Shown here: positions 5,855 through 33,633 of the stretch, piece after piece | Numbering within the stretch: position 1 is the stretch's first letter | Layout: each line of letters opens with the position of its first letter | Source: Chromatiales bacterium | Lineage (GTDB): Bacteria > Pseudomonadota > Gammaproteobacteria > RBG-16-57-12 | NCBI GenBank assembly: GCA_026989455.1 | Contig: JALSJH010000059.1 | Location: 784-64,783, forward strand | DNA length: 64,000 nt | Direction: 5' to 3' | Program-made: the position numbers and the translations under genes | Notes under the pieces: model-generated | Databases searched by the model: none | Seen by the model: the letters and a program-made list of their open reading frames with translations, nothing else | What the model was told of the DNA's origin: nothing

Positions 5855-6610
5855 ATGAAACTGCCCGCTACACTGCCCGCCCGATTACGGGCGAGTGCCA
5901 TTCACTTTGCGCTCAGCTTGGCTGTTTTTCTGGTACTGCTCAGTTTGATTGTCTACATCTGGTATCCCGGGGCGCTGTTTTGGGTTGACGGTGGGGTTAG
6001 CGGAGTGAAAATCCTGATCGCAGTTGACTTGGTTTTGGGGCCGCTGTTAACCCTGATTATTTACAATCCCACCAAAACCCGACGTCATATTGTGATGGAC
6101 TTCATGCTGATAGCAGCCATCCAGGTGGCTGCTTTGGCTTGGGGTGTCAACACCATCTATGATCAAAAGCCACTGGCAGTGGTGTTTGATGGCAGTGCCT
6201 TTCAGATAGTGGATAAGGATTATCTGGAGAAACAGGCGATTGATATCACCGCTTTGAACAGCGAGGGCGCTCCGCTGCCGCTGATCTACTACTCCCGAAA
6301 ACCTCAAACCACAGAAGAGAGTGTAGGGGCGATCACGCAGCTGTTTATTAACTCAATTCCCGAATGGGCTGTGGTGACACTTTTTGATCCGCTTGATCTT
6401 CACCTGGCGGCGCTGAAAGAAGCGTCTGATAAGACAAAACGCCGACATCGTGAAAATGAGTTAGTCATGGCACGCTACCGCTCACTTTTATCAGAAAAAC
6501 AGTTAACTGAAGCGGATTCACTGTTATTGCCACTCAGTGGTCGTTTCGGTGACGGCTTGATGGTATTAGATCCATCGGGTGCGCTGCTGGGCAGTTTTCG
6601 GGTTGAGTGA
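5855..6610 (+). CDS. Hypothetical membrane protein (two N-terminal TM helices)
   Basis: Hydrophobic N-terminus with no recognisable catalytic motifs. Sits where tRNA-Asp follows dnaQ in enterics. Confidence 0.45.
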   Translation: MKLPATLPARLRASAIHFALSLAVFLVLLSLIVYIWYPGALFWVDGGVSGVKILIAVDLVLGPLLTLIIYNPTKTRRHIVMDFMLIAAIQVAALAWGVNTIYDQKPLAVVFDGSAFQIVDKDYLEKQAIDITALNSEGAPLPLIYYSRKPQTTEESVGAITQLFINSIPEWAVVTLFDPLDLHLAALKEASDKTKRRHRENELVMARYRSLLSEKQLTEADSLLLPLSGRFGDGLMVLDPSGALLGSFRVE

Positions 6611-6745: not shown

Positions 6746-7813
6746 ATGGATAATCGCGTCGAAAATTTGCACATCATCTCCGAAGTTCCTCTGATTCGCC
6801 CAGATCAGGTGAAAGCGATGTATCCGCTTACTCCGGAGAGCATTGATACGGTCATGCAAGGGCAACAGCAGATTCGCAACATTCTGGATGGAAAAGATAA
6901 ACGTCTGTTTGTGGTGGTTGGCCCCTGTTCCATCCACGATGTTGAGCTGGCACTTGACTACGCCAAGCGGCTTAAAACATTGGCAGATGAGCTAAAAGAG
7001 AGCCTCTGTATTGTGATGCGGGTCTATTTTGAAAAACCTCGCACCAGCATCGGCTGGCAGGGGTTGATTAACGATCCTGATATGGATGGCAGTTGTGATA
7101 TCGCCAAAGGGTTGTTGATGTCGCGAAAGCTGCTATTAAAAATTGCCGAGCTGGGGCTGCCTGCTGCCGGTGAGGCGCTGGATTTGATTACACCACAATA
7201 TGTTCAGGATCTCTTCTCCTGGACAGCCATCGGCGCGCGCACCACAGAGTCACAAACCCACCGTAAAATGGCCAGTGGCTTCTCAGCACCTGTTGGGTTT
7301 AAAAATGGTACCAATGGTGATTATGACGTCGCCATCAACGCCATCATCTGTGCGGCTCATAAAAATGATTTTGTCAGCATTGACCCTTTGGGTCAGGTGG
7401 CGGTTATTCGTACCAAAGGCAACCCCTACACGCACATGGTGTTGCGTGGCGGAAGCGACGGCCCCAACTACGATGAAAAGCATATCTCAGCCTGTGAAAA
7501 GCAGCTGGCCCATGGCGGGTTGCCACTTAATATTATGGTGGATTGCAGCCATGCCAATGCGCAGAAAAACCACCTGAAGCAGCGGGCAGTATTGGATGAT
7601 ATTGCCCAGCAGATTATTGATGGTAACCAATCCATCAAAGGGGTGATGGTTGAAAGTAATATCAAGGCGGGTAATCAGCCCATTCCTGCAGATCATGGGC
7701 AGTTGGCGTATGGTGTATCGGTTACCGACAAGTGTATTGATTGGCAGATGACTGAAGATGCACTGCGAGAGCTGGCACAAAAAACCGCAGTAGCACTTAA
7801 GAGTCGAGGTTAA
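6746..7813 (+). CDS. 3-deoxy-7-phosphoheptulonate (DAHP) synthase, class I
   Basis: 355 aa with class-I AroF/G/H motifs (KRLFVVVGPCSIHD, GARTTESQ, HMVLRGG). The isozyme cannot be assigned. Confidence 0.85.
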   Translation: MDNRVENLHIISEVPLIRPDQVKAMYPLTPESIDTVMQGQQQIRNILDGKDKRLFVVVGPCSIHDVELALDYAKRLKTLADELKESLCIVMRVYFEKPRTSIGWQGLINDPDMDGSCDIAKGLLMSRKLLLKIAELGLPAAGEALDLITPQYVQDLFSWTAIGARTTESQTHRKMASGFSAPVGFKNGTNGDYDVAINAIICAAHKNDFVSIDPLGQVAVIRTKGNPYTHMVLRGGSDGPNYDEKHISACEKQLAHGGLPLNIMVDCSHANAQKNHLKQRAVLDDIAQQIIDGNQSIKGVMVESNIKAGNQPIPADHGQLAYGVSVTDKCIDWQMTEDALRELAQKTAVALKSRG

Positions 7814-7854: not shown

Positions 7855-8772
7855 TCACTTGGTATGACAGGTGAGACACAAGGCGCTTTCGGCGTTTGAG
7901 ATCCGTAAAAAACTTGGAATGAACTCACTGGTTGGCCCTGCCGATGGCACACCATGGGGGTCATGACAAGAGGCACACTCCACCTCATAGCCCTCCCCCG
8001 TATTGTACATGCGAATTTCGTTGGTATCACTCCGGCCATTTCCATTGATATCAAAAAAGCTTAATTTCCCAGCCTGAATGCCCGTAGGTATCCTAAAGTC
8101 GACGCCCGCGCCAAGGGTGGTGGGATATTCCACGCCGATGGGGTGGTCATTACGTAGATCAGTACTGATGAAAAAGGCTGAAAAATCGGCCATTCCCAGC
8201 GAAGGAAACATCGGTGGTGTGCCATGGCAGCGGTTGCAGTCTGAGGCGGTGCTACCAAACATAACCGCGTGGTTGCCACCGCTAGGGCCTGGCCCACTCC
8301 AGCTATCGAGAAAGGCCATATCAACACTGCTCTCCTGAGCGGGGTTATAACCACCCGAGCCGGGCATGTTGATCACCGAGTCTATGGCGATGGTGCCATC
8401 GTGACAAGAGAGGCAGGTTAACGAATTAGCCCCAGGGTCGGTGATAGTCTGGCCTAGGGTGGTGGGCATGTCGTAGAGTGTATAGGGATCCGACGGGCGG
8501 GTTCTGTTCCAAAGTGGTATCGCCCCCATCTGGCCGCTGGCTCCATGGGGGGTGTGGCAGTAGACACATACGGCATCATAGTCGTTGCGATAGGCGTTCA
8601 TGAACCCTTCCATGTCTGAGTAGCGCTGGGTCAGGTTATGCCCGGTGTTGGCTACCGTGGTATGGTTGGGTGCCTTGGAGGCCGCACGCCAGCCATCAGC
8701 AGAGGCTACTGAAATCAATAGCAGAGTGCTGATTGTAACGAGCAGTACCAAAGAGCTACGGGTGAATCGCAT
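7855..8772 (-). CDS. Secreted pentaheme c-type cytochrome
   Basis: Signal peptide followed by five CxxCH motifs (CVYCH, CLSCH, CNRCH, CASCH, CLTCH). Paralogous to the ORF at 32782-33633. Monocistronic and divergent from the histidine kinase gene. Confidence 0.8.
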   Translation of the reverse strand: MRFTRSSLVLLVTISTLLLISVASADGWRAASKAPNHTTVANTGHNLTQRYSDMEGFMNAYRNDYDAVCVYCHTPHGASGQMGAIPLWNRTRPSDPYTLYDMPTTLGQTITDPGANSLTCLSCHDGTIAIDSVINMPGSGGYNPAQESSVDMAFLDSWSGPGPSGGNHAVMFGSTASDCNRCHGTPPMFPSLGMADFSAFFISTDLRNDHPIGVEYPTTLGAGVDFRIPTGIQAGKLSFFDINGNGRSDTNEIRMYNTGEGYEVECASCHDPHGVPSAGPTSEFIPSFLRISNAESALCLTCHTK

Positions 8773-9049
8773 ACAACCTCCACGGCCAAGCGTAAATATT
8801 AATTAGTGTATTATAGTTGTTATTTTTTGGTTAATAAAGTTTATAAGTGAAGCGACCTTCTAGGTGAGAGACTATTGGTTGGGTGCGGTTACGATCGCTA
8901 CTCTCTACTTGTATAGTGTCGACCAATCACGACAAACCTTTTGTTTTTTGTTGGATTGGGTGAGGGTTTTCTGCGATGGCCCCAAGAGTGGACGTTTTGG
9001 GTGGGTTGAAAATTACCGAAGAGCCGAAGATGGTGGATCCGTAAGCGCT

Positions 9050-10810
9050 ATGAAAAAACTAATCGATAAATTTGATACGCCGATCCATCACGAGCAGATA
9101 CGCGCCCTGTATCAGCAGTCACCCTTTGTGCTCTTCAGTGTGTTGGCAGTAACTTTCATCGTTGCCATCTTTTTTTGGGAGCAGGTTGATCACCAGCTGC
9201 TGATCTCCTGGGTGGTGGTCAATTTGTCACTCACTTTTGCTAGGGTAGTGCTGGTTAAATCTTTTCAACGTGTTAACCCACAGGGGTCCACGCTGGTGAA
9301 GTGGGGGTTGCTGTTCTCATTTTCATCGCTGCTTTCCGGGGTTATCTGGGGGCAGATCGCGGTTCTGTTTATGGATACGGGGGATTTGATCAATACCCTG
9401 TTTTCGGTGCTGGTAATTATTGGCATGGCATCGGGAAGCCAGGTTTCACTCTCCACTTTCTTGCCAGCCTACTTTGGTTTTGGTGTGCCAACGCTGCTGC
9501 CACTGGCGGTTGTTTTATTCAATCAGCCTGAAAACACCTTTGTATTGATTGGTTATATGGCGATGGTGTTCATCATCGCCAGTCTGGCCTTCTCGCTCAT
9601 TATGAATCGCAATGTTTCGGAGTCGATACGGCTGCGATTCGAAAATCTGGATCTGCTGGAGAGCCTTGAACTGCAAAAAGATATTGCTGAAAAAGCCAAT
9701 ACAGATAAATCACGGTTCCTTGCGGCGACCAGCCATGACCTACGCCAACCGCTGCACGCCATGGACCTTTACCTGGGTGCCTTAAAAAATATACTGAGTG
9801 AACAGGAGCAGGTTGAGCTGTTAAATAAGGGGCTGCAATCCAGTGCCGCGCTGGGTGAACTATTGGCGGCGTTGATGGATGTATCACGTCTGGATGCGGG
9901 GGATGTGGTGGTTGATTTCAGCGTGGTTAACCTCGATAGCTTGTTGCAGACTATCTGTGATGAGTATCAGGAGAAGGCGAGTTGCCAGAAGATGGTGCTT
10001 GAGTTTAAGCCATCGAAGTTGCTAGTGGAGAGTGACGAGTTAATGTTGGGGCGGATGCTGCGTAATTTGGTTAATAATGCGTGTACCCATAGCGCCGGAA
10101 CTCATATTTTACTTAAGGCTGAAAAGAGTGGAGAGCGAGTATGTCTTACGGTATTTGATAATGGTAAAGGTATCCCTAAGTCGCAACAGCAACAGGTGTT
10201 TTCCGAGTTTTATCAGTTGAATAATCCTGAGCGTGACAGAAATAAAGGGCTGGGTCTAGGGTTGGCTATTGTTAAGCGCCTTGCCACTCTTTTGCACCAT
10301 GATCTGCAGCTGGAGAGTGCGGCAGGAGAGGGCTGCTCTTTTAAGTTGTGTTTGCCCTTTATCGGGGTGGCTGATAACGCGGTGATCGATGCGGTGGATA
10401 CCACTAGCCTGGATGTCTCTGGGCTGTTTGTCATTCTTGTTGATGATGAAGCGGATATCAGAAATGCCATGCGCACCTTGTTGTTGCAATGGGGGTGTGA
10501 GTTGCTGGTGGCGGACAGTTTGCAATCATTGCAGCGGGAGCTGGCCGAAATTAACTATCCACAGCCCGATGTGTTGCTGTGTGACTATCGTCTGCGGGAG
10601 AATAAAAATGGTTTGGAGGTGGTTGTCGCCATGCGGCAATATTTTAATGAAGAACTTCCGGCGGTTATTATCAGTGGCGATACTGACAAAGCGATAGAGG
10701 CGGAGGCCCTGGAGCAGGGGTGTGATGTTTTACACAAGCCGATCCGCCCCGAGCTATTGCGTACAGCGATTTATAACCTTGCTAGGAAGTCTCTGATTAA
10801 GCCAGCATAA
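9050..10810 (+). CDS. Hybrid sensor histidine kinase (6-TM N-terminal sensor, HisKA, HATPase, C-terminal receiver)
   Basis: Six predicted TM helices. H-box ATSHDLRQPLHAM, N/G boxes (LVNNACTHS, DNGKGIP, GLGLGLAIV). C-terminal REC domain (ILVDDE ... LCDYRL). The track ORF begins at 8864, but the likely start is the ATG at 9050 (MKKLIDKF), so the start is approximate. Confidence 0.75.
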   Translation: MKKLIDKFDTPIHHEQIRALYQQSPFVLFSVLAVTFIVAIFFWEQVDHQLLISWVVVNLSLTFARVVLVKSFQRVNPQGSTLVKWGLLFSFSSLLSGVIWGQIAVLFMDTGDLINTLFSVLVIIGMASGSQVSLSTFLPAYFGFGVPTLLPLAVVLFNQPENTFVLIGYMAMVFIIASLAFSLIMNRNVSESIRLRFENLDLLESLELQKDIAEKANTDKSRFLAATSHDLRQPLHAMDLYLGALKNILSEQEQVELLNKGLQSSAALGELLAALMDVSRLDAGDVVVDFSVVNLDSLLQTICDEYQEKASCQKMVLEFKPSKLLVESDELMLGRMLRNLVNNACTHSAGTHILLKAEKSGERVCLTVFDNGKGIPKSQQQQVFSEFYQLNNPERDRNKGLGLGLAIVKRLATLLHHDLQLESAAGEGCSFKLCLPFIGVADNAVIDAVDTTSLDVSGLFVILVDDEADIRNAMRTLLLQWGCELLVADSLQSLQRELAEINYPQPDVLLCDYRLRENKNGLEVVVAMRQYFNEELPAVIISGDTDKAIEAEALEQGCDVLHKPIRPELLRTAIYNLARKSLIKPA

Positions 10811-10842
10811 AGTATTCATGAGCTGTTCAGAGCTTCCCTAGA

Positions 10843-11442
10843 TTATGAAGGACTGATACCTAAAAGTTCACGCGCTTTCAAGCCGGCCTGCATGCGATTA
10901 TCTACCTTCAGCAAGCGCAGCAGTACCGTGATGTACTGCTTGATAGTACCTTCCGATAGATACATCTTTTCTGCAATGTCCTTGTTGCTTAGCCCTTCGG
11001 CAAGATGAGCGAGAATCTGCTTCTGTTTATCTGAAAGGTCAACGGTGTTGGCTTTATCCAGATTAATAGGCAGATAACGTACACCCAATAAAACCTGCTT
11101 CACCGCCAGTAAAATGGTATCCCCTGAGGATGATTTTGTGACATAACCGGCAGCACCTGCATCAATACAACTGCGAATGGTCTGGCTATTTTCATCGGCA
11201 GAAACAATCAGCAGGGGGGGGCTTTTTAGTTGTGAGCAGAGCTGTTTGATGCTGACCGCGCCTTGCATTCCCGGCATCCCTAAATCCATCATCAATAGAC
11301 CGTAATCCGCGTGATGCAGGCGCTCTCTGACGCTATCCAGCGTATCAGCAAAATCAATAACCAGATCTTCATCGAGTTGTTTCAACCAGACCGCCATGCT
11401 GTCGCGGAACAGACCATGGTCATCGGCAAGTAATAGATGCAA
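10843..11442 (-). CDS. Response regulator, NarL/FixJ (LuxR-HTH) family
   Basis: N-terminal REC domain (LLLADDHGLFRD ... LLMMDLGMPG) and C-terminal LuxR HTH (LSDKQKQILAHLAEGLSNKDIAEKMYLSEGTIKQYITVLLRKL). Confidence 0.85.
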   Translation of the reverse strand: MHLLLADDHGLFRDSMAVWLKQLDEDLVIDFADTLDSVRERLHHADYGLLMMDLGMPGMQGAVSIKQLCSQLKSPPLLIVSADENSQTIRSCIDAGAAGYVTKSSSGDTILLAVKQVLLGVRYLPINLDKANTVDLSDKQKQILAHLAEGLSNKDIAEKMYLSEGTIKQYITVLLRLLKVDNRMQAGLKARELLGISPS

Positions 11443-11502
11443 AACGGAGCCGCCTCTGAGATAGAAAAAGAGTGGAAGACCCTATCCTATTTTTTGTCGT
11501 AA

Positions 11503-11540
11503 TACTAACCAAAGTTAGTCTGAATTACTAACCAAAGTTA
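11503..11540. promoter_or_regulatory. Direct repeat pair TACTAACCAAAGTTA (2 copies, 23 bp centre-to-centre) in the divergent promoter region
   Basis: Exact 15-bp direct repeats at 11503-11517 and 11526-11540, between the LuxR regulator start (11442) and the lipoprotein start (11601). Candidate operator for the adjacent regulator. Confidence 0.35.
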
Positions 11541-11600
11541 ATATTGGGTGGGGGCTGTTTAGGTGATAATGAGCACACTAACATATCAGCATTAAAAAGG

Positions 11601-14453
11601 ATGTTACACATGTATAACCCGCGAAAAGGTACCTTGTTTTACCCGTTTTTAATCGCTGCGCTACTGCTCTCCATAACCCTGCTTAGTGGCTGTGGTGGGG
11701 GTGAAGAGAGTGTTGCTGAGGGTGCGCCGGAGACGTTGCAGGAGGAGGCCATCATCGCAACATCCAAGATTTCTGGTTATGTTCTGGTAGCGAGTCTCCC
11801 GGTCAATGACACAACAGTGCAATACACATACCAGGCTTCTTTTGATAATGGTGACTTTCCAGCAAGCCAGGTGACGGCTCGCATTACCGAAACTCCGGAT
11901 GGCATCATCCTCATTGATGGTACCTTGAGCTTCAGTAATGTGGAAGCCAGTGGTCGCCAAGTGAGTAACAAGCACTTTGTTATTCAACGTGATCTTAGTA
12001 AGCCATTTCATGTTAATGACCTGATTTGGGCTATTGAGGCTCAGCGTGAAGCCAGCCTAAGTTTTGATGCTGAACAGTATGAGCTGCGGATGGGGGTTGG
12101 CGAGACCCGCGATGTCAGTTACCAGCTATTGGCGTTCAATCCGGATACGGTGGCTACTGGGCTGAGTTTGCGGGAAGAGGTTGATGCGGCTGTGCAGCTG
12201 AGCAGCCGTAATAGCGGCGTAATTAGTTTGACCCCAGGTAGTAGTCGTTTTCGGCTTAGCCAGAGCATCACCTCCCTGACTACCGGTCGTTTTGAATTGA
12301 CCCTTACCGCTACTTTGCCAAGTACTGGCTTGGAGCAGAGCGTGCGCATCAATATTATTGTTGAAGCCGATTTGGATGGCGATGGTGTGCCTGATGAGAT
12401 TGATCTGTGTGCCTTTAGTATCTTGGGTGACTCCGTCGATAACAGTGGTTGTGCGGCAACCGATGTGGTTGATAGCAGCGCCTTTCGTGACTTGCAGATA
12501 GGTGAGACCACCTTTCGTGTGCAAGAGAATAATCTCGAAGAGCAATACTCAAACGGCATACTCACCGGGTTGCAGGCCAGTGGCTCACTCTTACTACTGA
12601 CCCCTCTCGGTGATATTGTATTGAAAGAGGCTGAGCTTGTTTTTGAGTATGGTACATCCGGGATGGGTGGTATCGAGCGTCTACGGGGTACTGCACAAGT
12701 CCCCTTTCCTGATGTGGGTATGCTGGCTGATGCAGAGGTTGGTACACCGGTGATAGCGGATGTGGGCCTCGATTATGGCCGTAACTTGTCTGATCTTGAA
12801 GCACCGTTGGTAGATGATCGCCAATATCTGTTTTTCAACTTTAGTGCTGGCTTTGAGGCGAGTGTTGGCCCTATCAGTTTCGAAGCGCCGGGTGGCAAGG
12901 CGATTACCTTTGTTCTCGATCCGCTGGACCCCTTCTTTTTCTTCACCGGCGACCTGCCAGGGCTGTCTGATATCGGAGTAGAAGATCTTGGTATTGCCAT
13001 GTCACTGCGGGGGCTGATTCCCTTCACACCTGATACGACTTGGGGTATCGGTGATGATATCGGTAATTTTGATGCCAACCTCTATCTGCAAGGTGTCATT
13101 CCCTTTGCTCGTTGGCCGTTAAATCTTGATGGTTCGCTGGTGGTTGATGTGGATGCCAATGACGATGGGCAGACGCTGTTTAACAGCTTTACGCCAGATG
13201 TAGAGTATGGGGGCAATGGTACGCTCAATGTGGGTGTCGATTTCCTTAAGTTTTTCGGTTTTAGTTTCGAATTGGGCAGTGCCAGTCTGGGTATTAAAAT
13301 GACCAATGGTGAGCAGAATGCCTATTTTAGCGGCATGCTTGATCCCGACACCGATTTTTTGCCGCAAGAGTTGGTGCCAATTCGCCCCAGTGCCACGGTT
13401 AACATGGCGGGCCTTATCAGTGACGATATCGCCAAATCATTTTTACGTGGTGAGGGTGAGTTTAATCTCGATGCTTCAACACTAGGGCGCTTGGTGGGCA
13501 TCAATCTTAATAACCTCAGTACGACAAGCGCAACATTCAGCGCTGACCGTGATGGTATAAACCTGACGGGCTATACACGCACCAGCATCTACCCTGATGT
13601 GGGTTTTGATGGGGATGCTCGGCTCAATGCCAATTTTACGGGGTCATTGACTAGCTGGAGTATCGATCTCAGCGGTGAGATGTCAATTGCCAATACCCCA
13701 ATCAGTGAAGGTCGGCTAGAGGTCAGTACAGCGGGCATGTTGGTGAGTGGTGAGTTTGTCACACCGTTGACCCGCATCGGGATGAACGGGCAGATTGATG
13801 CCAGTGGCATTGAAATGCGCGGTAATACAGGCATTACTATTCCGATCAGCGTGGTGGAGAGCGTGGTTGAGTGGGTGGTAGATGCCGCTATCTGCGGTAC
13901 TGAACGGGTGACTGATGCCGCACGGTGCGGCTTGGATTCAGTGACCAGCAGTGCAATTTGTGGCTACCAGGCCGTGACCAGCGCGGCTCAATGTGGTACC
14001 CGCACCGTGACCAGTGCGGTTCACTGTGGTACGAGCACCATTACCAGTGCCGCCAGATGTGGAACCAATTGGGTGACCGACATCGCAACGTGTGGCTGGA
14101 GTGTCATTACTGGGCAAGGGGGTTGCAGTGTTGCTAGGTCTTGCAGTGTTGCCAATAGCTGTAGTATCGCTAACACCTGTGATATTGCGAATACCTGCTC
14201 GATACCCGCAAGCTGTGATATTCCCCGTGGTTGTAACAACAGCACCAATGTCACGCTTCCAAAGGGTGAATTCCGTGGTGACATCGAACTGTTATTGGGT
14301 AATCAGGGTATCGGTGGTGAAGTGAGTGGTGACTACTGCTTTGCGGGTGACTGCACCACCCTTACTGGGGGACGAGTCAAGGCCGGTAGTAGTGGTCTGG
14401 AGGCATGTATAACCATCCCTGCGGGTATTGGTGAGGTGTGCGCGCCTATCTAA
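11601..14453 (+). CDS. Large lipoprotein with C-terminal Cys-Gly tandem repeat module
   Basis: Likely start at 11601 (MLHMYNPRKG, AAGGA RBS); the track ORF starts at 11544. Lipobox LLSGC. One TSP3-like Ca loop (DLDGDGVPDEID). The C-terminus has 7 x 11-aa repeats (AxCGxxxVTSA) followed by 6 x 6-aa repeats ([ST]C[SD][IV][AP][NR]). No recognisable enzymatic motif. Confidence 0.7.
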   Translation: MLHMYNPRKGTLFYPFLIAALLLSITLLSGCGGGEESVAEGAPETLQEEAIIATSKISGYVLVASLPVNDTTVQYTYQASFDNGDFPASQVTARITETPDGIILIDGTLSFSNVEASGRQVSNKHFVIQRDLSKPFHVNDLIWAIEAQREASLSFDAEQYELRMGVGETRDVSYQLLAFNPDTVATGLSLREEVDAAVQLSSRNSGVISLTPGSSRFRLSQSITSLTTGRFELTLTATLPSTGLEQSVRINIIVEADLDGDGVPDEIDLCAFSILGDSVDNSGCAATDVVDSSAFRDLQIGETTFRVQENNLEEQYSNGILTGLQASGSLLLLTPLGDIVLKEAELVFEYGTSGMGGIERLRGTAQVPFPDVGMLADAEVGTPVIADVGLDYGRNLSDLEAPLVDDRQYLFFNFSAGFEASVGPISFEAPGGKAITFVLDPLDPFFFFTGDLPGLSDIGVEDLGIAMSLRGLIPFTPDTTWGIGDDIGNFDANLYLQGVIPFARWPLNLDGSLVVDVDANDDGQTLFNSFTPDVEYGGNGTLNVGVDFLKFFGFSFELGSASLGIKMTNGEQNAYFSGMLDPDTDFLPQELVPIRPSATVNMAGLISDDIAKSFLRGEGEFNLDASTLGRLVGINLNNLSTTSATFSADRDGINLTGYTRTSIYPDVGFDGDARLNANFTGSLTSWSIDLSGEMSIANTPISEGRLEVSTAGMLVSGEFVTPLTRIGMNGQIDASGIEMRGNTGITIPISVVESVVEWVVDAAICGTERVTDAARCGLDSVTSSAICGYQAVTSAAQCGTRTVTSAVHCGTSTITSAARCGTNWVTDIATCGWSVITGQGGCSVARSCSVANSCSIANTCDIANTCSIPASCDIPRGCNNSTNVTLPKGEFRGDIELLLGNQGIGGEVSGDYCFAGDCTTLTGGRVKAGSSGLEACITIPAGIGEVCAPI
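13880..14240 (+). repeat. Coding tandem repeats (33-bp then 18-bp units) encoding Cys-containing peptide repeats
   Basis: Periodic protein sequence ICGTERVTDAA / RCGLDSVTSSA / ICGYQAVTSAA / QCGTRTVTSAV / HCGTSTITSAA / RCGTNWVTDIA / TCGWSVITGQG, then SCSVAN / SCSIAN / TCDIAN / TCSIPA / SCDIPR. Confidence 0.7.
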
Positions 14454-14567: not shown

Positions 14568-15644
14568 TTATGGGATATGCCGGTGCTGTGCCAATGCCCA
14601 GGCAACGTGCTCTCTGATCAGTTCATTTTTATCATGCGCTCTCTCTTGTAGTGCCTTGATGACGCGCTCACTTCCTTGTGCGTTTCCTAGCGCCACCGCA
14701 ATGTTGCGTATCCAGCTAGTGTGACCAATACGACGAATCGGTGAGCCTGCCATGTTGTCGAGGAAGGTTGCTTCACTCCATAAAAATAATTCGGCCAGTT
14801 GCGGCTCTGCCAGTCCATGGCGTGGCAGGAAGTCCTGTTCACGGCTATAGCGGGCGAAGCGGTTCCACGGGCAGGCGAGTTGGCAATCATCACAGCCATA
14901 TATTCTGTTACCCATCGCCTTGCGGAATTCGATGGGGATCGATCCTCGCAGTTCAATAGTGAGGTAAGAGATGCAGCGTCGACCATCCACTTGGTAGGGG
15001 GCGACAATGGCTTGGGTAGGGCAGAGGTCGATACAGGCCGTGCAGCGCCCACAATGATTAGTCGTCGTGTTTTGTGCATCTATGGGAAGCGGTAGATCGG
15101 TGTAAAGCTCACCCAGAAAAAACCAAGAGCCAGCTTGTCGGTTGATTAGATTGCTGTGTTTGCCAATCCAGCCAAGCCCCGCTTTTTCGGCCAACGCCTT
15201 TTCCAATACCGGCGCACTATCCACAAAGGCGCGATAGCCAAATTCACCCACCTGCTGTTGGATGAAATCGGCCAGCTGTTGCAGCCGTTTACGCACTACT
15301 TTGTGGTAATCCCGCCCGAGGGCGTAGCGTGAGATGTAGCCTTTGCTTGATTGTTGTAATAGCTTGCCCGCAACCACGCCATCGGGTGGCAGGTAGTCCA
15401 TGCGCACCGAGATAATGCGCAGTGTGCCCGGCGCTAGCTCGGCGGGGCGGCTACGCTTGTTGCCGTGGCGCGCCATATATTCCATCTCACCGTGATAGCC
15501 CTTTTTTAGCCAGCGATTCAAGTGCTGCTCGGCATCCTCCAGCTGACAGTCGGCGACACCTAACTGCTGAAAGCCGAGTTGGCGCGATTTTTCTCTAATT
15601 TTTGCCAGCAGTGCTTGATTATCATTATGTTTTTTTTCGGGCAT
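14568..15644 (-). CDS. queG: Epoxyqueuosine reductase
   Basis: Two 4Fe-4S ferredoxin motifs (CGRCTACIDLCP, CDDCQLACPW) plus a C-terminal HEAT-like tail. Divergent from nnr as in E. coli (yjeS/yjeF). Confidence 0.85.
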   Translation of the reverse strand: MPEKKHNDNQALLAKIREKSRQLGFQQLGVADCQLEDAEQHLNRWLKKGYHGEMEYMARHGNKRSRPAELAPGTLRIISVRMDYLPPDGVVAGKLLQQSSKGYISRYALGRDYHKVVRKRLQQLADFIQQQVGEFGYRAFVDSAPVLEKALAEKAGLGWIGKHSNLINRQAGSWFFLGELYTDLPLPIDAQNTTTNHCGRCTACIDLCPTQAIVAPYQVDGRRCISYLTIELRGSIPIEFRKAMGNRIYGCDDCQLACPWNRFARYSREQDFLPRHGLAEPQLAELFLWSEATFLDNMAGSPIRRIGHTSWIRNIAVALGNAQGSERVIKALQERAHDKNELIREHVAWALAQHRHIP

Positions 15645-23588: not shown

Positions 23589-26426
23589 ATGCGCGATTGG
23601 ATTAATTTATTACTGGTTATTACCTTTTCATTGGTATTGGCCGCCTGTGGTGGCGATGGTTTGGGAACCTCCGGAACGACAGCCCAAGATCCGCCACCAG
23701 TGGCTGACCCAGATGCACCTGTTCCCACCTCAGATGCAACCAATATAACGCTATTGGTCAGTAGTCCGCAAATGCCATCAGACGGCTCAAATACAGTTAC
23801 CTTGACGGCGGTGGCACGAGATAACAGCAACAGGTATGTAGAAAACACTACCATTGAGTTCTCGGCATCATCCGGTGGTATTTTAACCGGTGAGCGCACT
23901 GCAACTAACTCTTCAGGGCGAGTCTCTGCAACGCTGGATATTGGTGGCGACCCCGCTAACAGAACAATTGTGGTTACTGCGGTTGATAGTGTAACCGGCC
24001 AGAGTGCTAATCGGTCAGTTGAAGTGAGGGACACGCGGTTTATCTTTTCCGGTCCTCAGCGTATTGAGGTGGGTGAGAGTGCTGAGTTAGTGGTGCAGTT
24101 AGTGGATGCTGGTGGTAACCCAATCACCTTTCAAAATATCACCTTGACCTCCTCTCAGGGTAATACCATACAAGCACCTACTGGGCTGGTTACTGATAGT
24201 ACCGGTCGTATTACAGTGACAGTACTTGGCGGGGTCGCGGGTTCTGATTTCATTACCGCCAGCGCTTTTGGTCTGAATGCTGATAACAGTACCTTTTCAC
24301 TGGATATTATCACTGCGGATGCCATTTCATTTTACTTCGACTTGCCGGTCGATAATGCTGAGATTGCATTGGGCACGAACGCTGCTTTTCGTGTCTGCTT
24401 GACGGATGGCGCAGCCGCTGTAGCGGCGGGAACCACCATTCAAATTTCATCTACCCGCGGAACCTTTGGTTCAAGTGGTGGAGCTGTTGCCTCTTACAGC
24501 TCGGATGGATTGGCAACTTGTTGGGATGATACGCTGTCCAACCAAGGAGCGGGCTTCGCTCAGGTATTGGCGACTACCTCCAGTGCTACAGTCGCTTATG
24601 ATGAGCTGAGTGCCTCAAAATTACTTGAGTTTATTTCAACCACTGTCAGCTTAGTTAATATACAAGCTGCGAAATCCATTTTGGAGCGCGGAGAGCAGAC
24701 TCAAATTGTCGCTACATTGCGTGATAGTCACTATAATTTGGTGAAAAATAGAACGGTCAGTTTTTCCATTGATGCCGATGCCAGTAATGGCAATCTTAAC
24801 CCCCCCACAGCGACCACCAACAGTAATGGGGAGGCAACAGTTGTCTATACTGCGGGGATGGCTAGCTCTGGGCTGTATGATGTTATTATCAAAGCAGAAG
24901 ATTATGAGTCGGGGCTTTTTTCAACCACAGAGCTTACGGTTCAAAATAGAGCATTGCATGTAGCGCTGGGTCGCGGTAATACTATGGCTAATTATGATGA
25001 TGGGTCCTTAACCTCCTACGCGCTACCTTATAGTGCCATCGTAACTGATTCTGCTGGGCAACCTGTTGCTAATCAGCCGATAAGCCTCTCCATCTGGTCG
25101 CATCGATATTTCAAAGGTAGTTACTACCCCACATACTCTCCAACCGGCGGTTTTATTCTCTATAGCAATGCACCAGTTGATGAGTATGAGTGGGATGTGC
25201 CCGGTGACGGTGTAATTAGTTGGGGGCGCGTGCTCAGTTGTGGTAATGAAGATACTGATTTTAACGGCATCGCAGACTTTAATGAGGACCTCAATAGAAA
25301 TAGAACTTTTGACCGGACAAATGAAGATCTGAATGGTAATGGTGTTATCGATTTAAGTGAGGATACCAATGCAAATGGTATTTTGGATATTCTTGAGGAT
25401 GCGAATCGAAATGGTATTTTAGATCCGGGTGAGGATCTTAATGGTAATGGTAAATTGGATGCCACTGAAGATATCAACCTCAATGGGGTGTTGGATGGTA
25501 GTGAAGATGTCAATGAAAATGGTATTTTGGATGTGCTCGAAGATACCAACCTCAATGGTCGATTGGATCCAGGCGAGGATTTGAATTTCAATGGTGTGCT
25601 AGATGCTACGGAGGATCTGGACGGCGATGGTTTCTTGACCTCGGAAGATATTAATCGCAACGGTATTTTGGACCCGGGTGAAGATACCAATGGTGATGGT
25701 GTGTTGACCACAGAAGATCTTAACGGCAACGGGGTGCTGGATGTCAGTGAAGATCTTAACCTCAACGGTGTGCTGGATTTTGGTGAAGACCTGAACGGTA
25801 ACGGTATCATTGATGTGAGTGAAGACCGTAATTTGAATGGTTTTCTGGATGTGCTTGAAGATGCCAATAGAAATGGCGTGTTAGACCCGGGTGAAGACCT
25901 CAATGGTAATGGTCTTTTAGATCTTAGCGAAGATATTAATGGTAATGGTGTGCTGGATGTTGATGAAGACATTAATGGTGATGGCGTATTCTATGCCTAC
26001 GAGGATAGTAACCAAAATGGTATTTTAGACCCGGGTGAAGATCTGAATGGTGACGGTATTCTCAACCTTCCAGTAGATGTAGATGTGAATGGTAATGGCC
26101 GTCTTGACCCAGGCAATGTTGCGACAATTTCGGTAGATGACACTATTGGTGCCTTCTCAATCAACACCACCACTGATGAAAATGGTGTGGCTATCTTTGC
26201 AGTGATTTATGCTGAAAGTTTTGCAGGTTGGTTGGAGGTGTCACTTGAAGCGAGAGTGATCGTTGATGGTACTGAAAACTCGGACCGGACTCGCTTTATT
26301 TTACCGGCACTGGCCGATGACCTTAATCAGGAGGATACTCCCCCGGCAGGCTATGTTAGCCCCTTTGGTCGTGGTTATGATGTGCGTACTGGCCTGATTC
26401 AGGGTTGTACGGTGGACGAGATTTAG
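23589..26426 (+). CDS. Large lipoprotein with bacterial Ig-like domains and about 25 tandem EF-hand/TSP3-like calcium-binding loops
   Basis: Lipobox LVLAACGG. Several roughly 90-aa Ig-like (Big-type) repeats (TIVVTAVDSVTGQSANRSVEV and similar). From about residue 545 to 850, back-to-back 11-13 aa loops match D-x-N-x-N-G-x-L-D-x-x-E-D. Confidence 0.75.
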   Translation: MRDWINLLLVITFSLVLAACGGDGLGTSGTTAQDPPPVADPDAPVPTSDATNITLLVSSPQMPSDGSNTVTLTAVARDNSNRYVENTTIEFSASSGGILTGERTATNSSGRVSATLDIGGDPANRTIVVTAVDSVTGQSANRSVEVRDTRFIFSGPQRIEVGESAELVVQLVDAGGNPITFQNITLTSSQGNTIQAPTGLVTDSTGRITVTVLGGVAGSDFITASAFGLNADNSTFSLDIITADAISFYFDLPVDNAEIALGTNAAFRVCLTDGAAAVAAGTTIQISSTRGTFGSSGGAVASYSSDGLATCWDDTLSNQGAGFAQVLATTSSATVAYDELSASKLLEFISTTVSLVNIQAAKSILERGEQTQIVATLRDSHYNLVKNRTVSFSIDADASNGNLNPPTATTNSNGEATVVYTAGMASSGLYDVIIKAEDYESGLFSTTELTVQNRALHVALGRGNTMANYDDGSLTSYALPYSAIVTDSAGQPVANQPISLSIWSHRYFKGSYYPTYSPTGGFILYSNAPVDEYEWDVPGDGVISWGRVLSCGNEDTDFNGIADFNEDLNRNRTFDRTNEDLNGNGVIDLSEDTNANGILDILEDANRNGILDPGEDLNGNGKLDATEDINLNGVLDGSEDVNENGILDVLEDTNLNGRLDPGEDLNFNGVLDATEDLDGDGFLTSEDINRNGILDPGEDTNGDGVLTTEDLNGNGVLDVSEDLNLNGVLDFGEDLNGNGIIDVSEDRNLNGFLDVLEDANRNGVLDPGEDLNGNGLLDLSEDINGNGVLDVDEDINGDGVFYAYEDSNQNGILDPGEDLNGDGILNLPVDVDVNGNGRLDPGNVATISVDDTIGAFSINTTTDENGVAIFAVIYAESFAGWLEVSLEARVIVDGTENSDRTRFILPALADDLNQEDTPPAGYVSPFGRGYDVRTGLIQGCTVDEI
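25224..26139 (+). repeat. Coding tandem repeat (roughly 36-39 bp units) encoding the Ca-binding loop array
   Basis: Visible periodicity of GATxTxAATGGxAATGGTGTGCTGGAT-like units. The antisense ORF 25160-25972 is an artefact of this repeat. Confidence 0.7.
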
Positions 26427-31675: not shown

Positions 31676-32806
31676 CTACTGCTCTTTCTCTTTCATCTCT
31701 TTGCGGATTTTATCTCTATATTTCACGCCTAAATAACCATCTTGTGCTGTGATTGAGGCTGGCCTGAAGATGTCAATCTTTCGAAAAAACTGATCGGCAT
31801 AATAGATGCGACCATCTTCATCAACTTCTAACCCGGAAGGGAGCATGAAAGTACCTGGTCTACCATCGTTGCTGCGGCTGCCAATGAACAGAAGTAGCTG
31901 ACCCTCGGGGTTGAATATCTGGAAGTTGCCAAATGCCGAGTCACCAACATAGACGTTGTTATCTTTGTCTGTCGCAATTCCTTTTGGCCGTGAAAAGTTG
32001 CCACTGTAGCGTCCGGCAACACCGAATGTAGATATGAAGTCACCCTCTGCGGTGAAAGACTGGACACGGAAGTTGCCGCCATCCACAACGTAAACGGTTC
32101 CATCGGGTGCGGTGCTGACCTGAATGGGTAGATTGAAATCACCCGGTTTTTTACCACGCTCTCCGACAACTCTTTTGATTTCAAATGTCTCAGCATCGAT
32201 GACATACATGTGATGACGGGTGCTGCTAATGCCCCCGCTATCGATCACATAGAGGGTTTTTCCATCAGGGCTGACGGCGACACCCGATGGGCGGTCAAAG
32301 AGGGTTCGTCCTTCCAGCTTGCGCTGGTATTCACCCTCTTCATTGTATACTTTTATACTTTTATCTGTGATGTCAGCTACATATAGATTGCCATCCGCGT
32401 CGATGTCGATTCCTAGCGGTTTTAGCAGCATGCCAGGCCCCTCTTTTACACCGATAAAAGAGGTCTTCCCTCTGGGTACATCGAATAAAATGACGGCACG
32501 CTGAACGGTGTCAGTTACATATATTTTCCCTTTTCTGACTGCGATACCAAAAGGTTTTGCCAAGCCTGTTGTGCTTTCAGTGGAACCGGTTGCCAGAAAC
32601 TTGAATTTCATTGCGGCCGTTACATCTGCAATGCTGGCACCGCTGTAGATGGTTCGTTCATATATGAATCTAGGGTCTTCTGGAGGGTATTGCGGTGGTT
32701 TGAATTCGGGGCGGTTCTCGCTTGAGCAGCCCGTGAGGGCGGCCATGACGAACAGCAGTGAGAGCGCAAGGGTTGTTGTTATTATTTTGTGTGGCAAGTG
32801 TTGCAT
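31676..32806 (-). CDS. NHL-repeat beta-propeller lipoprotein
   Basis: Lipobox LTGC. Six NHL-like repeats (GIAVRKGKIYVTD, GIDIDADGNLYVAD, GVAVSPDGKTLYVID and others). Its start overlaps the upstream cytochrome gene by about 25 bp, indicating an operon. Confidence 0.75.
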   Translation of the reverse strand: MQHLPHKIITTTLALSLLFVMAALTGCSSENRPEFKPPQYPPEDPRFIYERTIYSGASIADVTAAMKFKFLATGSTESTTGLAKPFGIAVRKGKIYVTDTVQRAVILFDVPRGKTSFIGVKEGPGMLLKPLGIDIDADGNLYVADITDKSIKVYNEEGEYQRKLEGRTLFDRPSGVAVSPDGKTLYVIDSGGISSTRHHMYVIDAETFEIKRVVGERGKKPGDFNLPIQVSTAPDGTVYVVDGGNFRVQSFTAEGDFISTFGVAGRYSGNFSRPKGIATDKDNNVYVGDSAFGNFQIFNPEGQLLLFIGSRSNDGRPGTFMLPSGLEVDEDGRIYYADQFFRKIDIFRPASITAQDGYLGVKYRDKIRKEMKEKEQ

Positions 32807-33633
32807 AAAATTTCTCTTCTCACCGTTAGTAGAAGTTCGTTGGTTGAGTTGTGTACATCATGGCAAGATGCACACTCTATATTTCCATCGTAAAGGCGAA
32901 CACCATTGCTGAAACCTGCTGGATCCAATGGGAGCTTAAAGTCGCGATCTCGCCAGTTGAACCCGCCATACTGAATGGATATCGGGTGTTCATCTGAGAG
33001 GTCGGTGCCCAATACTTTCGGGGAAATATCGTGTGCGGCCTCTCCATCATGACATGTGCCGCAGCTGTCTAAATCTTTCGCGCTGTTCATGCGCATGTGC
33101 ATCGCAGCATCATCTTCACTCCTAAAGCTGCCAGGTGTGAAGAGCACCATATCCATTGCCATGGTGCCATCGTGGCATGAGAGGCAGAGCAAACTAATGC
33201 TGGACGGGGTGCGCAGCGGCGCATCGAGGCTGGGTGATGTGTAGGGTGTGTATTGATCGGCTGCGGGTGCAAAACGGTTCCAGCCTGCAATGCCCCCCAA
33301 TAGCTCACTGTCGGTATCGGCCTCTTCTGGCGGCAAGTGGCAGTAGACGCAGGGGTTTCCGTAGTCAGAAAAAGCAACCCCTGCCATTGCATTAACCCCG
33401 GCACGCTCATTGAGGCCAGTGAAGTCATGCTTTGAACCCATGATCGGATCATTCAGGCCAATGACCGGGTCAGCTATAATACCGACTGTCGCCAAAGCCT
33501 GTGATAGCCCGAAGGCTGATGCAATGACAGCAGAGAACAGTAGCAAATGCTTTCTACCCAAGGGCATATGAAATTTTAGAGAGTCTTTTAAGTTCATTTT
33601 GTTCCATTTTTTTTTGGGCATAATTAGCCGCAA
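32782..33633 (-). CDS. Secreted pentaheme c-type cytochrome (paralog of 7855-8772)
   Basis: Five CxxCH motifs (CVYCH, CLSCH, CGTCH, CASCH, CNTCH) in the same order, with the same flanking residues (LxCLSCHDGT, DHPI, ECASCHDxH, C-terminal CxTCHTK) as the other copy. The signal peptide suggests the real start may be the internal Met at about 33567. Confidence 0.8.
   Translation of the reverse strand: MRLIMPKKKWNKMNLKDSLKFHMPLGRKHLLLFSAVIASAFGLSQALATVGIIADPVIGLNDPIMGSKHDFTGLNERAGVNAMAGVAFSDYGNPCVYCHLPPEEADTDSELLGGIAGWNRFAPAADQYTPYTSPSLDAPLRTPSSISLLCLSCHDGTMAMDMVLFTPGSFRSEDDAAMHMRMNSAKDLDSCGTCHDGEAAHDISPKVLGTDLSDEHPISIQYGGFNWRDRDFKLPLDPAGFSNGVRLYDGNIECASCHDVHNSTNELLLTVRREILCNTCHTK

Follow-up and report, generated by a model that had tools for sequence, protein, structure and literature searches.

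A five-heme cytochrome of the OmcE fold and a two-component system with a cysteine-rich lipoprotein are probably independent neighbours in an uncultured gammaproteobacterium

Introduction

When genes for a multiheme cytochrome, a sensor kinase, a response regulator and a large lipoprotein stand side by side, do they form one system? We examined this question for a locus in a gammaproteobacterial MAG, using a 64-kb stretch of DNA (hereafter, the window). The original prediction, arguing from proximity, took the four genes to be inserted between aroG and queG and to form a probable self-contained unit for redox sensing or for extracellular electron transfer/adhesion. We consider it probable that the locus instead holds two independent units, which are neighbours in one narrow lineage: an OmcE-fold cytochrome (unit A) and a two-component system with its lipoprotein target (unit B).

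Results and Discussion

Organization of the locus

The four genes and their flanks are arranged as follows.

6746–7813, (+), class I DAHP synthase gene (aroG-type; aroFGH model), flank
7855–8772, (−), secreted c-type cytochrome gene, unit A; 305-aa ORF with five CXXCH motifs
9050–10810, (+), hybrid sensor histidine kinase gene, unit B; 586 aa, Pfam domains
10843–11442, (−), NarL/LuxR-type response regulator gene, unit B; 199 aa, Pfam REC and GerE HTH
11503–11540, no strand, tandem TACTAACCAAAGTTA box, candidate operator, unit B; direct repeat D15
11610–14453, (+), lipoprotein gene, unit B; 947 aa
13881–14249, (+), lipoprotein Cys-repeat region; residues about 758–880
14568–15644, (−), queG, flank

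The reading frames and domains agree with the original description (five CXXCH motifs, a 6-TM hybrid kinase without an HPt domain, a REC-LuxR regulator and a Cys-repeat lipoprotein), and so does the position between an aroG-type gene and queG, beyond which lie nnr, tsaE, amiB and mutL. The DAHP synthase passed the aroFGH model and missed the AroG-specific cut-off. The cytochrome and kinase genes are divergent across a common 277-bp intergenic region, and the regulator gene is convergent with the kinase gene and divergent from the lipoprotein gene.

A five-heme cytochrome related to OmcE

The cytochrome has one hydrophobic segment at its N-terminus (residues 7–25), which resembles a signal sequence (...VASA/DG). 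In phmmer searches of the PDB, it matched 9YUQ (2.4e-20) and 7TFS (3.2e-16), and a profile of its family matched 7TFS (1.9e-28) and 9YUQ (5.9e-28), with homology spanning both halves of the protein. These entries are the filament subunits OmcE of Geobacter sulfurreducens (7TFS) and Desulfuromonas soudanensis (9YUQ) (PMC12954529; bioRxiv 10.1101/2025.10.22.684050). The original prediction, which did not recognise the locus as a named system, missed this homology to nanowire subunits.

Like OmcE, the cytochrome is small, Sec-exported and mostly coil, and it has four CXXCH motifs with four further axial histidines (T-x-H-x-L, CH-T-P-H, N-D-H-P and CH-D-x-H), so that all eight heme-ligand histidines of OmcE are kept. 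Unlike OmcE, it binds one heme more, through a fifth CXXCH motif and a conserved histidine (C179-x-x-C182-H183 and H168) in an insert of roughly 65 residues (about residues 135–202). Ten histidines and five invariant CXXCH motifs are conserved among 37 members of the family. Judged from these features, the cytochrome is a Sec-exported, five-heme protein of the OmcE fold, in which the insert would add a putative fifth bis-His heme to the four-heme core. It most likely transfers electrons at a site beyond the inner membrane. That it polymerises into a filament like that of OmcE, with the fifth heme exposed at the side, is a tentative proposal that we hold to be possible, though doubtful; the predicted structure (pLDDT 50) was too poor for placing this heme.

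The cytochrome has more than 7,341 homologues, whose hosts include Gallionella, Burkholderiaceae, Chromatiales, Thiohalophilus and Nitrospinota. Petersen et al. (2025) reported proteins similar to OmcE that contain five CxxCH motifs and come mainly from uncultured bacteria belonging to diverse phyla. They proposed that such OmcE-like proteins with five hemes make up a nanowire family, as yet uncharacterised, whose extra heme is exposed to the solvent (bioRxiv 10.1101/2025.10.22.684050). By description, the window cytochrome fits this family. In Desulfuromonadia, omcE is always accompanied by a porin, beta-propeller lipoproteins and multiheme partners, whereas the cytochrome at 7855–8772 has none of them and belongs to a gammaproteobacterium.

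A paralogous cytochrome with an NHL-repeat partner

A second cytochrome, overlooked in the original prediction, lies in the same window beside a beta-propeller lipoprotein gene.

31676–32806, (−), NHL-repeat beta-propeller lipoprotein gene; 376 aa, Pfam NHL 6.1e-25
32782–33633, (−), second, paralogous five-heme OmcE-like cytochrome gene; 283 aa, five CXXCH motifs

It is 32% identical to the first cytochrome (E 1e-25) and matches 7TFS with an E-value of 8.7e-13. The product of the NHL gene immediately downstream is 40–50% identical to the propeller lipoproteins that adjoin the cytochrome at 7 of the 24 genome loci, where such a lipoprotein is the commonest neighbour of the cytochrome family. 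This neighbourhood and the presence of two paralogues in one genome are new with respect to the preprint on 5-heme OmcE-like proteins. In Ca. Tenderia electrophaga, the "secondary cytochrome cluster" likewise contains a pentaheme cytochrome and an NHL-domain protein (bioRxiv 10.1101/2022.05.06.490989). By gene content, this gammaproteobacterial pairing resembles the second copy (31676–33633), in contrast to the cytochrome at 7855–8772, which has no NHL partner.

Co-occurrence of the four genes in related genomes

Most of the contigs compared are short MAG fragments, and the absence of a gene refers to the 10 kb around each locus, not to the whole genome. On this scale, all four genes occur together only in close relatives, namely L002, in which the proteins are 86–89% identical, and L048–L050, whose cytochrome falls into the 90% cluster. 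The synteny is complete in these loci: queG-nnr-tsaE-amiB borders the four genes at one end, and aroG-tfpZ-dnaQ-rnhA borders them at the opposite end. At 80% cytochrome identity (L005 and L013), aroG-tfpZ-dnaQ-rnhA is kept beside the cytochrome gene, the kinase, regulator and lipoprotein genes are not adjacent, and the other neighbour is HSP15/LexA in L005 and RNase E in L013. The junction between the cytochrome and aroG is older than the arrival of the other three genes. In the other 23 genome loci (cytochrome 40–56% identical), none of these three genes adjoins the cytochrome gene: the regulator and the lipoprotein are absent, and the kinase has weak matches only (25–30% identity), located 3–8 kb away.

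The kinase, regulator and lipoprotein genes do form a recurrent unit. Homologues of the lipoprotein at 63–73% identity keep a hybrid kinase (583–587 aa) and a LuxR-type regulator at two other chromosomal sites, one trkH-linked (L006/7 and L038–40) and one beside a radical-SAM gene (L010), and the cytochrome is absent from these loci. Counting all lipoprotein loci with at least 63% identity, a kinase and a regulator of the same architecture are directly adjacent in six of the six distinct loci, which represent three chromosomal sites and two gene orders. The kinases beside the 63–73% homologues are only 38–40% identical to the window kinase, and the regulator of the trkH-type loci is 35% identical to the window regulator. 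Because these identities are low, the grouping is an association of the lipoprotein with members of one kinase family rather than strict co-inheritance. Among more distant homologues, the lipoprotein gene has an ECF sigma factor gene as its neighbour in L041 and no neighbouring regulator gene in L008, L037 and L046.

According to the four-gene reading, the kinase senses redox state, the cytochrome and the lipoprotein are both under the control of the regulator, and these two proteins cooperate on the cell surface, either in extracellular electron transfer or in adhesion. The contiguity and gene order kept in the window, L002 and L048–L050 agree with it, as do the intergenic region common to the cytochrome and kinase genes and the presence of lipoproteins in OmcE clusters of Desulfuromonadia. 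However, the genes part company at 80% cytochrome identity and again at 63–73% lipoprotein identity, and in the 23 more distant loci none of the three partners adjoins the cytochrome gene. Moreover, the lipoproteins that OmcE clusters contain are of the beta-propeller kind, and in this genome the propeller partner sits with the paralogue at 31.7 kb. We regard the four-gene reading as unlikely. The original prediction had proposed co-occurrence as its own check, and this is where its redox unit breaks down: three of the genes recur together, and the cytochrome separates from them beyond relatives that are 86–89% identical or closer. Within the closest group, the four genes stand together in three or more independent assemblies, so that a functional link specific to this lineage may exist.

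The three-gene group stands at chromosomal sites that differ between lineages, which implies that it has moved at some time, as expected if a horizontally acquired island had been inserted between aroG and queG. The interval itself argues against this origin. Its GC content (0.47–0.53) matches the flanks, the GC skew is also continuous with them, no tRNA lies within 28 kb, neither an integrase nor a transposase is present, and the interval is not flanked by direct or inverted repeats. The cytochrome/aroG junction predates the three-gene group, and aroG directly adjoined queG in none of the relatives compared, an adjacency that the original prediction had suggested looking for. We consider an island improbable, and the word "inserted" in that prediction is not confirmed for the locus.

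The kinase and the response regulator

The mechanically called kinase ORF (8864–10810, +) begins with GTG at 8864. Its start is most likely the ATG at 9050, giving 586 aa, because the relatives are called at 584–587 aa. Six hydrophobic helices within residues ~26–184 are followed by HisKA, HATPase_c and Response_reg domains, which leave no room for an HPt domain. The kinase core scored 330 bits against the NCBIfam NahK/ErcS-type model (cut-off 400). The regulator consists of Response_reg (7.6e-20) and GerE (1.7e-14) domains, and its best NCBIfam match, ErdR, reached 96 bits, far under the cut-off of 390.

ErcS'(NahK)/ErdR and CrbS(MxtR)/CrbR(ErdR) likewise combine a HisKA-HATPase-REC kinase lacking HPt with a REC/LuxR-HTH regulator, and ErcS'(NahK)/ErdR-type models score best in NCBIfam for the window pair, yet below the family cut-offs for both proteins. 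The compact 6-TM sensor, which has no Pfam match and no assigned family, differs from the PAS/NosP-associated or SLC5/STAC sensors of the ErcS'/CrbS type, and the adjoining gene encodes a lipoprotein instead of acs/actP or alcohol-oxidation functions.

A tandem box in the lipoprotein promoter

The 167-bp divergent promoter region between the regulator and lipoprotein genes contains two exact copies of a 15-nt box, TACTAACCAAAGTTA, with a start-to-start spacing of 23 bp and a palindromic core (ACTAAC-CAAA-GTTAGT). They are the sole matches in the 64 kb with up to two mismatches. Both copies are kept in L002, and one copy, ACTAACTAAAGTTA, is kept in L010, whose regulator shows 61% identity. The trkH-type loci have their own conserved imperfect palindrome, TAGACYTYTGGCTAATACCC, at the same position upstream of the lipoprotein gene or of an FG-GAP/PKD gene that precedes it. 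Among the 47 loci fetched, the TACTAACCAAAGTTA pattern was absent outside these regulator/lipoprotein intergenic regions, and the TAGACYTYTGGCTAATACCC pattern is likewise unique. The tandem TACTAACCAAAGTTA is a candidate operator of the regulator. Even with three mismatches allowed, no such box was found near the cytochrome gene or in the cytochrome/kinase intergenic region, which argues further against common control of the four genes.

Under the reading with two independent units, the regulator pair most likely controls the large cysteine-rich surface lipoprotein. We infer that the 6-TM kinase would sense a membrane or periplasmic cue and pass phosphate to the NarL/LuxR-type regulator, directly or by way of an Hpt protein whose gene lies elsewhere. 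Once phosphorylated, the regulator would bind the tandem TACTAACCAAAGTTA boxes, whose centres lie about 44 and 67 bp upstream of a likely start point (estimated from a GATAAT hexamer at 11565–11570), and would turn on the lipoprotein gene and probably also its own divergent gene.

Alternatively, the two-component system may stand beside the lipoprotein gene incidentally and control genes elsewhere, as CrbS/CrbR and ErcS'/ErdR control carbon-source genes, with the lipoprotein otherwise regulated or constitutive. This would fit the much wider distribution of the kinase family (at least 120 full-length clusters versus 12 for the lipoprotein), the distant lipoprotein homologues that have no neighbouring two-component system, and the closeness of the kinase core and regulator to the NahK/ErcS and ErdR families. 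It sits poorly with the six of six adjacent loci at three sites in two orders, and with conserved palindromic boxes that face the lipoprotein gene in both locus types and are absent from the rest of the roughly 600 kb examined. We give this alternative little weight, although marginally more than the four-gene reading.

Architecture of the lipoprotein

The mechanical ORF spans 11544–14453 (+). The ATG at 11610 is the most likely start because the resulting 947 aa match the relatives. The lipobox (LLSG-C28) suggests lipidation at Cys28, and the Gly at residue +2 predicts outer-membrane sorting by the E. coli rule. Two Ig-like beta-sandwich domains (residues about 40–255) are followed by an Asp-rich, TSP3-like motif that includes a Cys pair (residues 254–281) and by an all-beta core of roughly 450 residues (about 290–750) whose fold is unassigned. 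Then come seven 11-residue "AAxCGxxxVTS" repeats (Cys 762, 773 ... 828), six 6-residue "CS[VI]AN[ST]" repeats (Cys 839, 845 ... 875) and a small C-terminal beta domain. The model confidence of the Cys-repeat region is very low.

Pfam and NCBIfam model searches assigned the lipoprotein to no sequence family; its own family is tiny, and the homologue alignment of the conserved core contains no invariant His, Lys or Cys. The architecture suggests an inducible surface or adhesion protein more than an enzyme. It would display the Ig-like domains, the Ca-binding-type motif and the novel beta-rich core on a disulfide-rich Cys-ladder stalk. Among known systems, the nearest are large bacterial surface or adhesin lipoproteins in which Ig-like domains (macroglobulin-like, S-layer SbsC, RbmA and pilin domains) stand in tandem; for the beta-rich core and the 11-/6-residue Cys ladder there is no characterised counterpart. 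The copy number of the Cys repeats differs among the aligned homologues. In L038, an FG-GAP/PKD/TSP3 surface protein has its promoter region in common with the lipoprotein, and in L038–40 genes for a CcdA/DsbD-type protein and a thioredoxin adjoin the lipoprotein gene.

Gene content and setting of the interval

The interval is bounded by a class I DAHP synthase gene on one side and by queG on the other, with nnr, tsaE, amiB, and mutL beyond queG. It holds four open reading frames at the positions predicted originally, and their assignment as a pentaheme cytochrome, a 6-TM hybrid kinase without an HPt domain, a LuxR-type regulator, and a Cys-repeat lipoprotein was confirmed as follows.

7855–8772, minus strand: secreted cytochrome of 305 aa, with five CXXCH motifs and one N-terminal hydrophobic segment ending ...VASA/DG
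9050–10810, plus strand: hybrid kinase of 586 aa (HisKA, HATPase_c, and receiver); the ORF is open from GTG 8864, with a likely start at ATG 9050
10843–11442, minus strand: regulator of 199 aa (REC and GerE/LuxR)
11610–14453, plus strand: lipoprotein of 947 aa with the lipobox LLSG-C28; likely start at ATG 11610, which gives the same length as in all close relatives

ATG 9050 was chosen as the likely kinase start because the proteins of relatives are called at 584–587 aa. The DAHP synthase passed the aroFGH model and missed the AroG-specific cut-off; we refer to its gene as aroG. The four genes had been described as inserted between aroG and queG, but the interval bears no mark of insertion: its base composition is continuous with the flanks, and neither flanking repeats nor mobility genes were found at it. 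The nearest tRNA is 28 kb away. Between aroG and dnaQ lies a gene (5855–6610, plus strand) whose product resembles the TfpX/TfpZ type IV pilin accessory family but scores below the cut-off (126 bits versus 200); its position is kept in all close relatives.

Separate distributions of the cytochrome and the other three genes

The order amiB-tsaE-nnr-queG-lipoprotein-regulator-kinase-cytochrome-aroG-tfpZ-dnaQ-rnhA is identical in three independent assemblies. All four proteins of one relative (locus L002) are 86–89% identical to those of the window, and the cytochromes of loci L048–L050 belong to the same 90%-identity cluster. Among the loci compared, the four genes occur together in these closest relatives only. 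At 80% cytochrome identity, the order cytochrome-aroG-tfpZ-dnaQ-rnhA is kept, the far side is occupied by HSP15/LexA (L005) or RNase E (L013), and no kinase-regulator-lipoprotein triad lies beside the cytochrome in either locus. The other 23 genome loci with a cytochrome homologue (40–56% identity) are all from MAGs except one Ramlibacter isolate, and are labelled Chromatiales, Thiohalophilus, Ectothiorhodospiraceae, Burkholderiaceae, Rhodocyclaceae, and Gallionella. The regulator, the lipoprotein, and the aroG-type synteny are near the cytochrome in none of them, and the kinase matches that they contain are weak (25–30% identity) and 3–8 kb from the cytochrome.

The lipoprotein is rare, with 12 homologues in 5.8 billion sequences. 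All six lipoprotein loci at 63% identity or above have an adjoining hybrid kinase (583–587 aa) and LuxR regulator (198–216 aa), and in three of the six the triad is at a different chromosomal place and the cytochrome is absent. The relocated triads lie between trkH and TauE or CcdA/thioredoxin genes (L006/7, L038, and L039/40) or beside a radical-SAM gene (L010). More distant lipoprotein homologues (L008, 48%; L037, 33%; L046, 27%) have no visible regulator, and a metagenome scan with the lipoprotein alignment returned six loci, four of them already known, with no dedicated regulator at the distant ones (L046). In another locus, an ECF sigma factor gene (L041, 2011–2598) is divergent from a 51%-identical lipoprotein homologue, in place of the two-component system; here a target of the same kind has a dedicated regulator of a different type.

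The kinases beside the 63–73% lipoprotein homologues are only 38–40% identical to the kinase of the window, although the alignment spans the whole protein and takes in the membrane domain; the regulators of L010 and of the trkH-type loci share 61% and 35% identity, respectively, with that of the window. Because of these identities, and because the kinase family is widespread, the lipoprotein is associated with members of one kinase/regulator family and not strictly co-inherited with one orthologue.

The best reading is therefore that two units are juxtaposed here: a lone five-heme OmcE-like cytochrome, and a two-component system with a candidate operator controlling a rare Cys-ladder lipoprotein. 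The original prediction had treated the four genes as one unit for redox sensing, electron transfer, or adhesion. Co-occurrence holds for the kinase, regulator, and lipoprotein, and the locus comparisons remove the cytochrome from the group. The chief practical outcome is a negative one: a four-gene "system" suggested by adjacency in one lineage is split in two by its comparative context.

The five-heme cytochrome is a homologue of OmcE

In a phmmer search of the PDB sequences, the cytochrome gave only two good cytochrome matches, 9YUQ (2.4e-20) and 7TFS (3.2e-16). These are the OmcE nanowire bundle of D. soudanensis (bioRxiv 10.1101/2025.10.22.684050) and the OmcE nanowire of G. sulfurreducens (PMC12954529), respectively. 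A profile of 37 cytochrome family members matched the same entries (7TFS, 1.9e-28; 9YUQ, 5.9e-28), with both halves of OmcE aligned. OmcE homologues are defined by four CXXCH motifs and four further ligand histidines (bioRxiv 10.1101/2025.10.22.684050), and all eight ligand positions (H45, H73, H76, H124, H210, H270, H273, and H303) are invariant or nearly so in the 37 members. OmcE is tetraheme, whereas the window cytochrome is pentaheme. An insert of ~65 residues between OmcE hemes 2 and 3 carries a fifth CXXCH (C179/C182/H183), invariant across the family, and the nearly invariant His168; together with the eight core positions, these provide ten conserved histidines for five bis-His hemes. 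The insert also explains why the window cytochrome is longer than OmcE (305 aa with the signal peptide versus 232 aa for mature OmcE).

A PSI-BLAST search with OmcE has returned many proteins with extra CxxCH motifs from uncultured bacteria of diverse phyla, and those with five motifs were modelled; their extra heme was predicted to be solvent-exposed, and an uncharacterised nanowire family was proposed (bioRxiv 10.1101/2025.10.22.684050). With its similarity to OmcE and its five CxxCH motifs, the window cytochrome fits this description by Petersen et al. (2025). An AlphaFold2 model of the monomer, built without hemes from the 37-sequence alignment, had a pLDDT of 49.7 and was too poor for a fold search. 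The family is very large, with more than 7,341 matches, and identity is 50–60% even to members from Nitrospinota and Gallionella. In Desulfuromonadia, omcE is always accompanied by an outer-membrane beta-barrel, two beta-propeller lipoproteins, and other multiheme cytochromes. In contrast, the window cytochrome is a lone gene convergent with aroG, and its other neighbour is the hybrid kinase; there is no porin, propeller, or multiheme gene beside it within the interval. Alignment of the cytochrome upstream regions across relatives revealed only a conserved ribosome-binding site.

A far-reaching reading, which we consider rather unlikely, has this five-heme OmcE homologue forming extracellular "leaky" nanowires in its host, an uncultured gammaproteobacterium that is probably chemolithotrophic. 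In this lineage, the wire gene would adjoin that of a sensor-controlled Cys-ladder surface lipoprotein, which could be the anchor or contact partner of the wire. On this reading, OmcE-type wires would extend to a very large family (more than 7,000 members, found in Gallionella, Chromatiales, Burkholderiaceae, and Nitrospinota), and might serve electron uptake and not metal reduction. Filament formation by the five-heme OmcE-like family would make cytochrome nanowires common in aerobic and microaerophilic chemolithotrophs (iron and sulfur oxidisers), and would bear on how such organisms take up electrons from solids. Whether the family forms nanowires, a question already raised in the literature, is the most interesting point of this locus, and the triad matters less than the cytochrome family.

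A second cytochrome with an NHL-repeat partner

The window encodes a paralogue of the cytochrome in an apparent operon with a propeller lipoprotein.

32782–33633, minus strand: paralogous five-heme cytochrome of 283 aa, 32% identical to the first (E 1e-25) and matching 7TFS at 8.7e-13
31676–32806, minus strand: NHL-repeat beta-propeller lipoprotein of 376 aa, directly downstream of the paralogue

An NHL beta-propeller lipoprotein of ~370 aa is the commonest neighbour of the cytochrome family (seven of the 24 genome loci), and the NHL lipoprotein of the window is 40–50% identical to these neighbours. Further multiheme genes are beside the cytochrome in a few of the 24 loci. The paralogue/NHL pair resembles the omcE clusters of Desulfuromonadia in their propeller lipoproteins, and a pairing of a pentaheme cytochrome with an NHL protein has been noted in Ca. 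Tenderia electrophaga (bioRxiv 10.1101/2022.05.06.490989). For the nanowire question, the window is a compact test case: only one of its two paralogues has an NHL propeller partner, and the other stands bare.

Just upstream of this pair are genes for a 321-aa secreted protein without a family (34022–34987, plus strand) and a pentapeptide-repeat protein with a lipoprotein-like N-terminus (35009–35776, minus strand). Elsewhere, some six- or five-heme family members adjoin diheme ORFs or very heme-rich ones (12 and 23 CXXCH in L019, 12732–15580); these neighbourhoods, in L019, L017, and L033, are probably larger electron-transfer clusters. The window also encodes an exported 116-aa protein with three CXXCH motifs (43946–44296, minus strand), adjoining a tRNA-Leu gene. 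This triheme protein has weak Pfam cytochrome c7 and c3 matches below the cut-offs and no convincing c7 match among the PDB sequences, and is possibly a periplasmic carrier.

Hybrid kinase and regulator

The kinase has six hydrophobic helices within residues 26–184, and the Pfam core HisKA-HATPase_c-REC covers residues 282–346, 391–499, and 523–636 of the 648-aa ORF. An HPt domain is lacking, since only 12 residues follow the receiver. The membrane part (residues 1–217 of the 586-aa protein) matched no Pfam family at E up to 0.01. Homologues of the kinase form at least 120 clusters at 38–89% identity, with 82–100% of the query aligned (nearly all above 90%), and include entries from Methylophaga, Mariprofundaceae, Oceanospirillaceae, and hydrothermal-vent metagenomes. 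The 6-TM sensor (9050–9700, plus strand; homologous kinases P0289–P0407, ~575–590 aa) is conserved at full length across these clusters, and seems to represent a widespread family of membrane sensors that has no name yet.

The kinase shares the HisKA-HATPase_c-REC core without HPt with the NahK/ErcS family, but misses the cut-offs of the two models (NF041832 and NF041831; 330.4 bits versus 400, and 234.5 versus 1500). The regulator likewise has the REC and GerE architecture of ErdR/CrbR but reaches only 96 of the 390 bits required (NF041830). The pair is thus alike in output architecture to the ErcS'(NahK)/ErdR and CrbS/CrbR class and different in its 6-TM sensor. Nothing found here ties the sensor to redox.

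A candidate operator upstream of the lipoprotein gene

Within the 167-bp region between the divergent regulator and lipoprotein genes, TACTAACCAAAGTTA occurs twice without mismatch at a distance of 23 bp, and its first copy extends to the perfect palindrome ACTAAC-CAAA-GTTAGT. At up to two mismatches, these are the only copies in the 64-kb window. Both are kept in L002, one copy (ACTAACTAAAGTTA) is present in L010, and the pattern was found nowhere else among the 47 fetched loci. The region between the cytochrome and kinase genes contains no such box, even at three mismatches.

In the trkH-type loci, where the regulator is divergent, a different but similar imperfect palindrome, TAGACYTYTGGCTAATACCC, occupies the corresponding position before the lipoprotein gene, or, in L038, before the FG-GAP/PKD/TSP3 surface-protein gene that precedes it. 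Its centre is related to that of the window's box, reading CCAAA(A)G on the other strand, and this palindrome is also unique among the fetched loci. In the window, the second box ends ~25 bp upstream of a GATAAT hexamer (11565–11570), and a good −35 hexamer is absent; this layout would be typical of an activator-dependent promoter. A scan for consensus promoters and terminators gave nothing above shuffled sequences. For the unannotated 6-TM kinases, with at least 120 clusters from marine Gammaproteobacteria and Mariprofundaceae, a candidate operator and a concrete candidate for the target gene are thereby available.

The Cys-ladder lipoprotein

The lipobox L-x-[GA]-C of the 947-aa protein (...ITLLSG-C28-GGG) follows a hydrophobic segment at residues 7–25; in 11 full-length homologues, L25, C28, and G29 hardly vary. 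This lipobox marks the protein as a predicted Lgt/LspA substrate. The repeats comprise seven 11-residue units, AAxCGxxxVTS, and after them six 6-residue units, CS[VI]AN[ST], and the number of Cys repeats varies between homologues. There are 20 cysteines besides the predicted lipidation site, and this even count would allow a disulfide ladder.

The protein has no match in Pfam, NCBIfam, or the PDB sequences, and a profile of its family found nothing in the PDB sequences at E up to 1. In the AlphaFold2 model (pLDDT 60), only two Ig-like sandwiches at the N-terminus (residues 40–255) are predicted with confidence; confidence is medium to low in the beta-rich core (290–750) and very low in the Cys repeats. 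A profile search indicated that the core is common to 2,116 unannotated proteins, mostly of 450–900 aa, and in ten distant members of this wider family Pfam detected only TSP3/dockerin-type Ca motifs. No His, Lys, or Cys is invariant in the conserved core, and this speaks against an enzymatic function.

In three of the trkH-type loci, genes for a CcdA/DsbD_TM protein and a thioredoxin-like protein lie 3′ of the lipoprotein gene (L038, 12874–13985; L039, 10897–11990; L040, 5759–6852) and may encode a thiol/disulfide system devoted to the Cys ladder; the locus in the window has neither gene. Taken together, these features and the Gly at +2 point to a putative outer-membrane-anchored, disulfide-stabilised surface or adhesion protein.

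Another lipoprotein of similar size (945 aa; 23589–26426, plus strand) was considered as a paralogue and found to be unrelated (E 0.66). Its Ig-like domains are of the Big_1/invasin type, and it also carries long DLNGNG repeats rich in Asp, Asn, and Gly.
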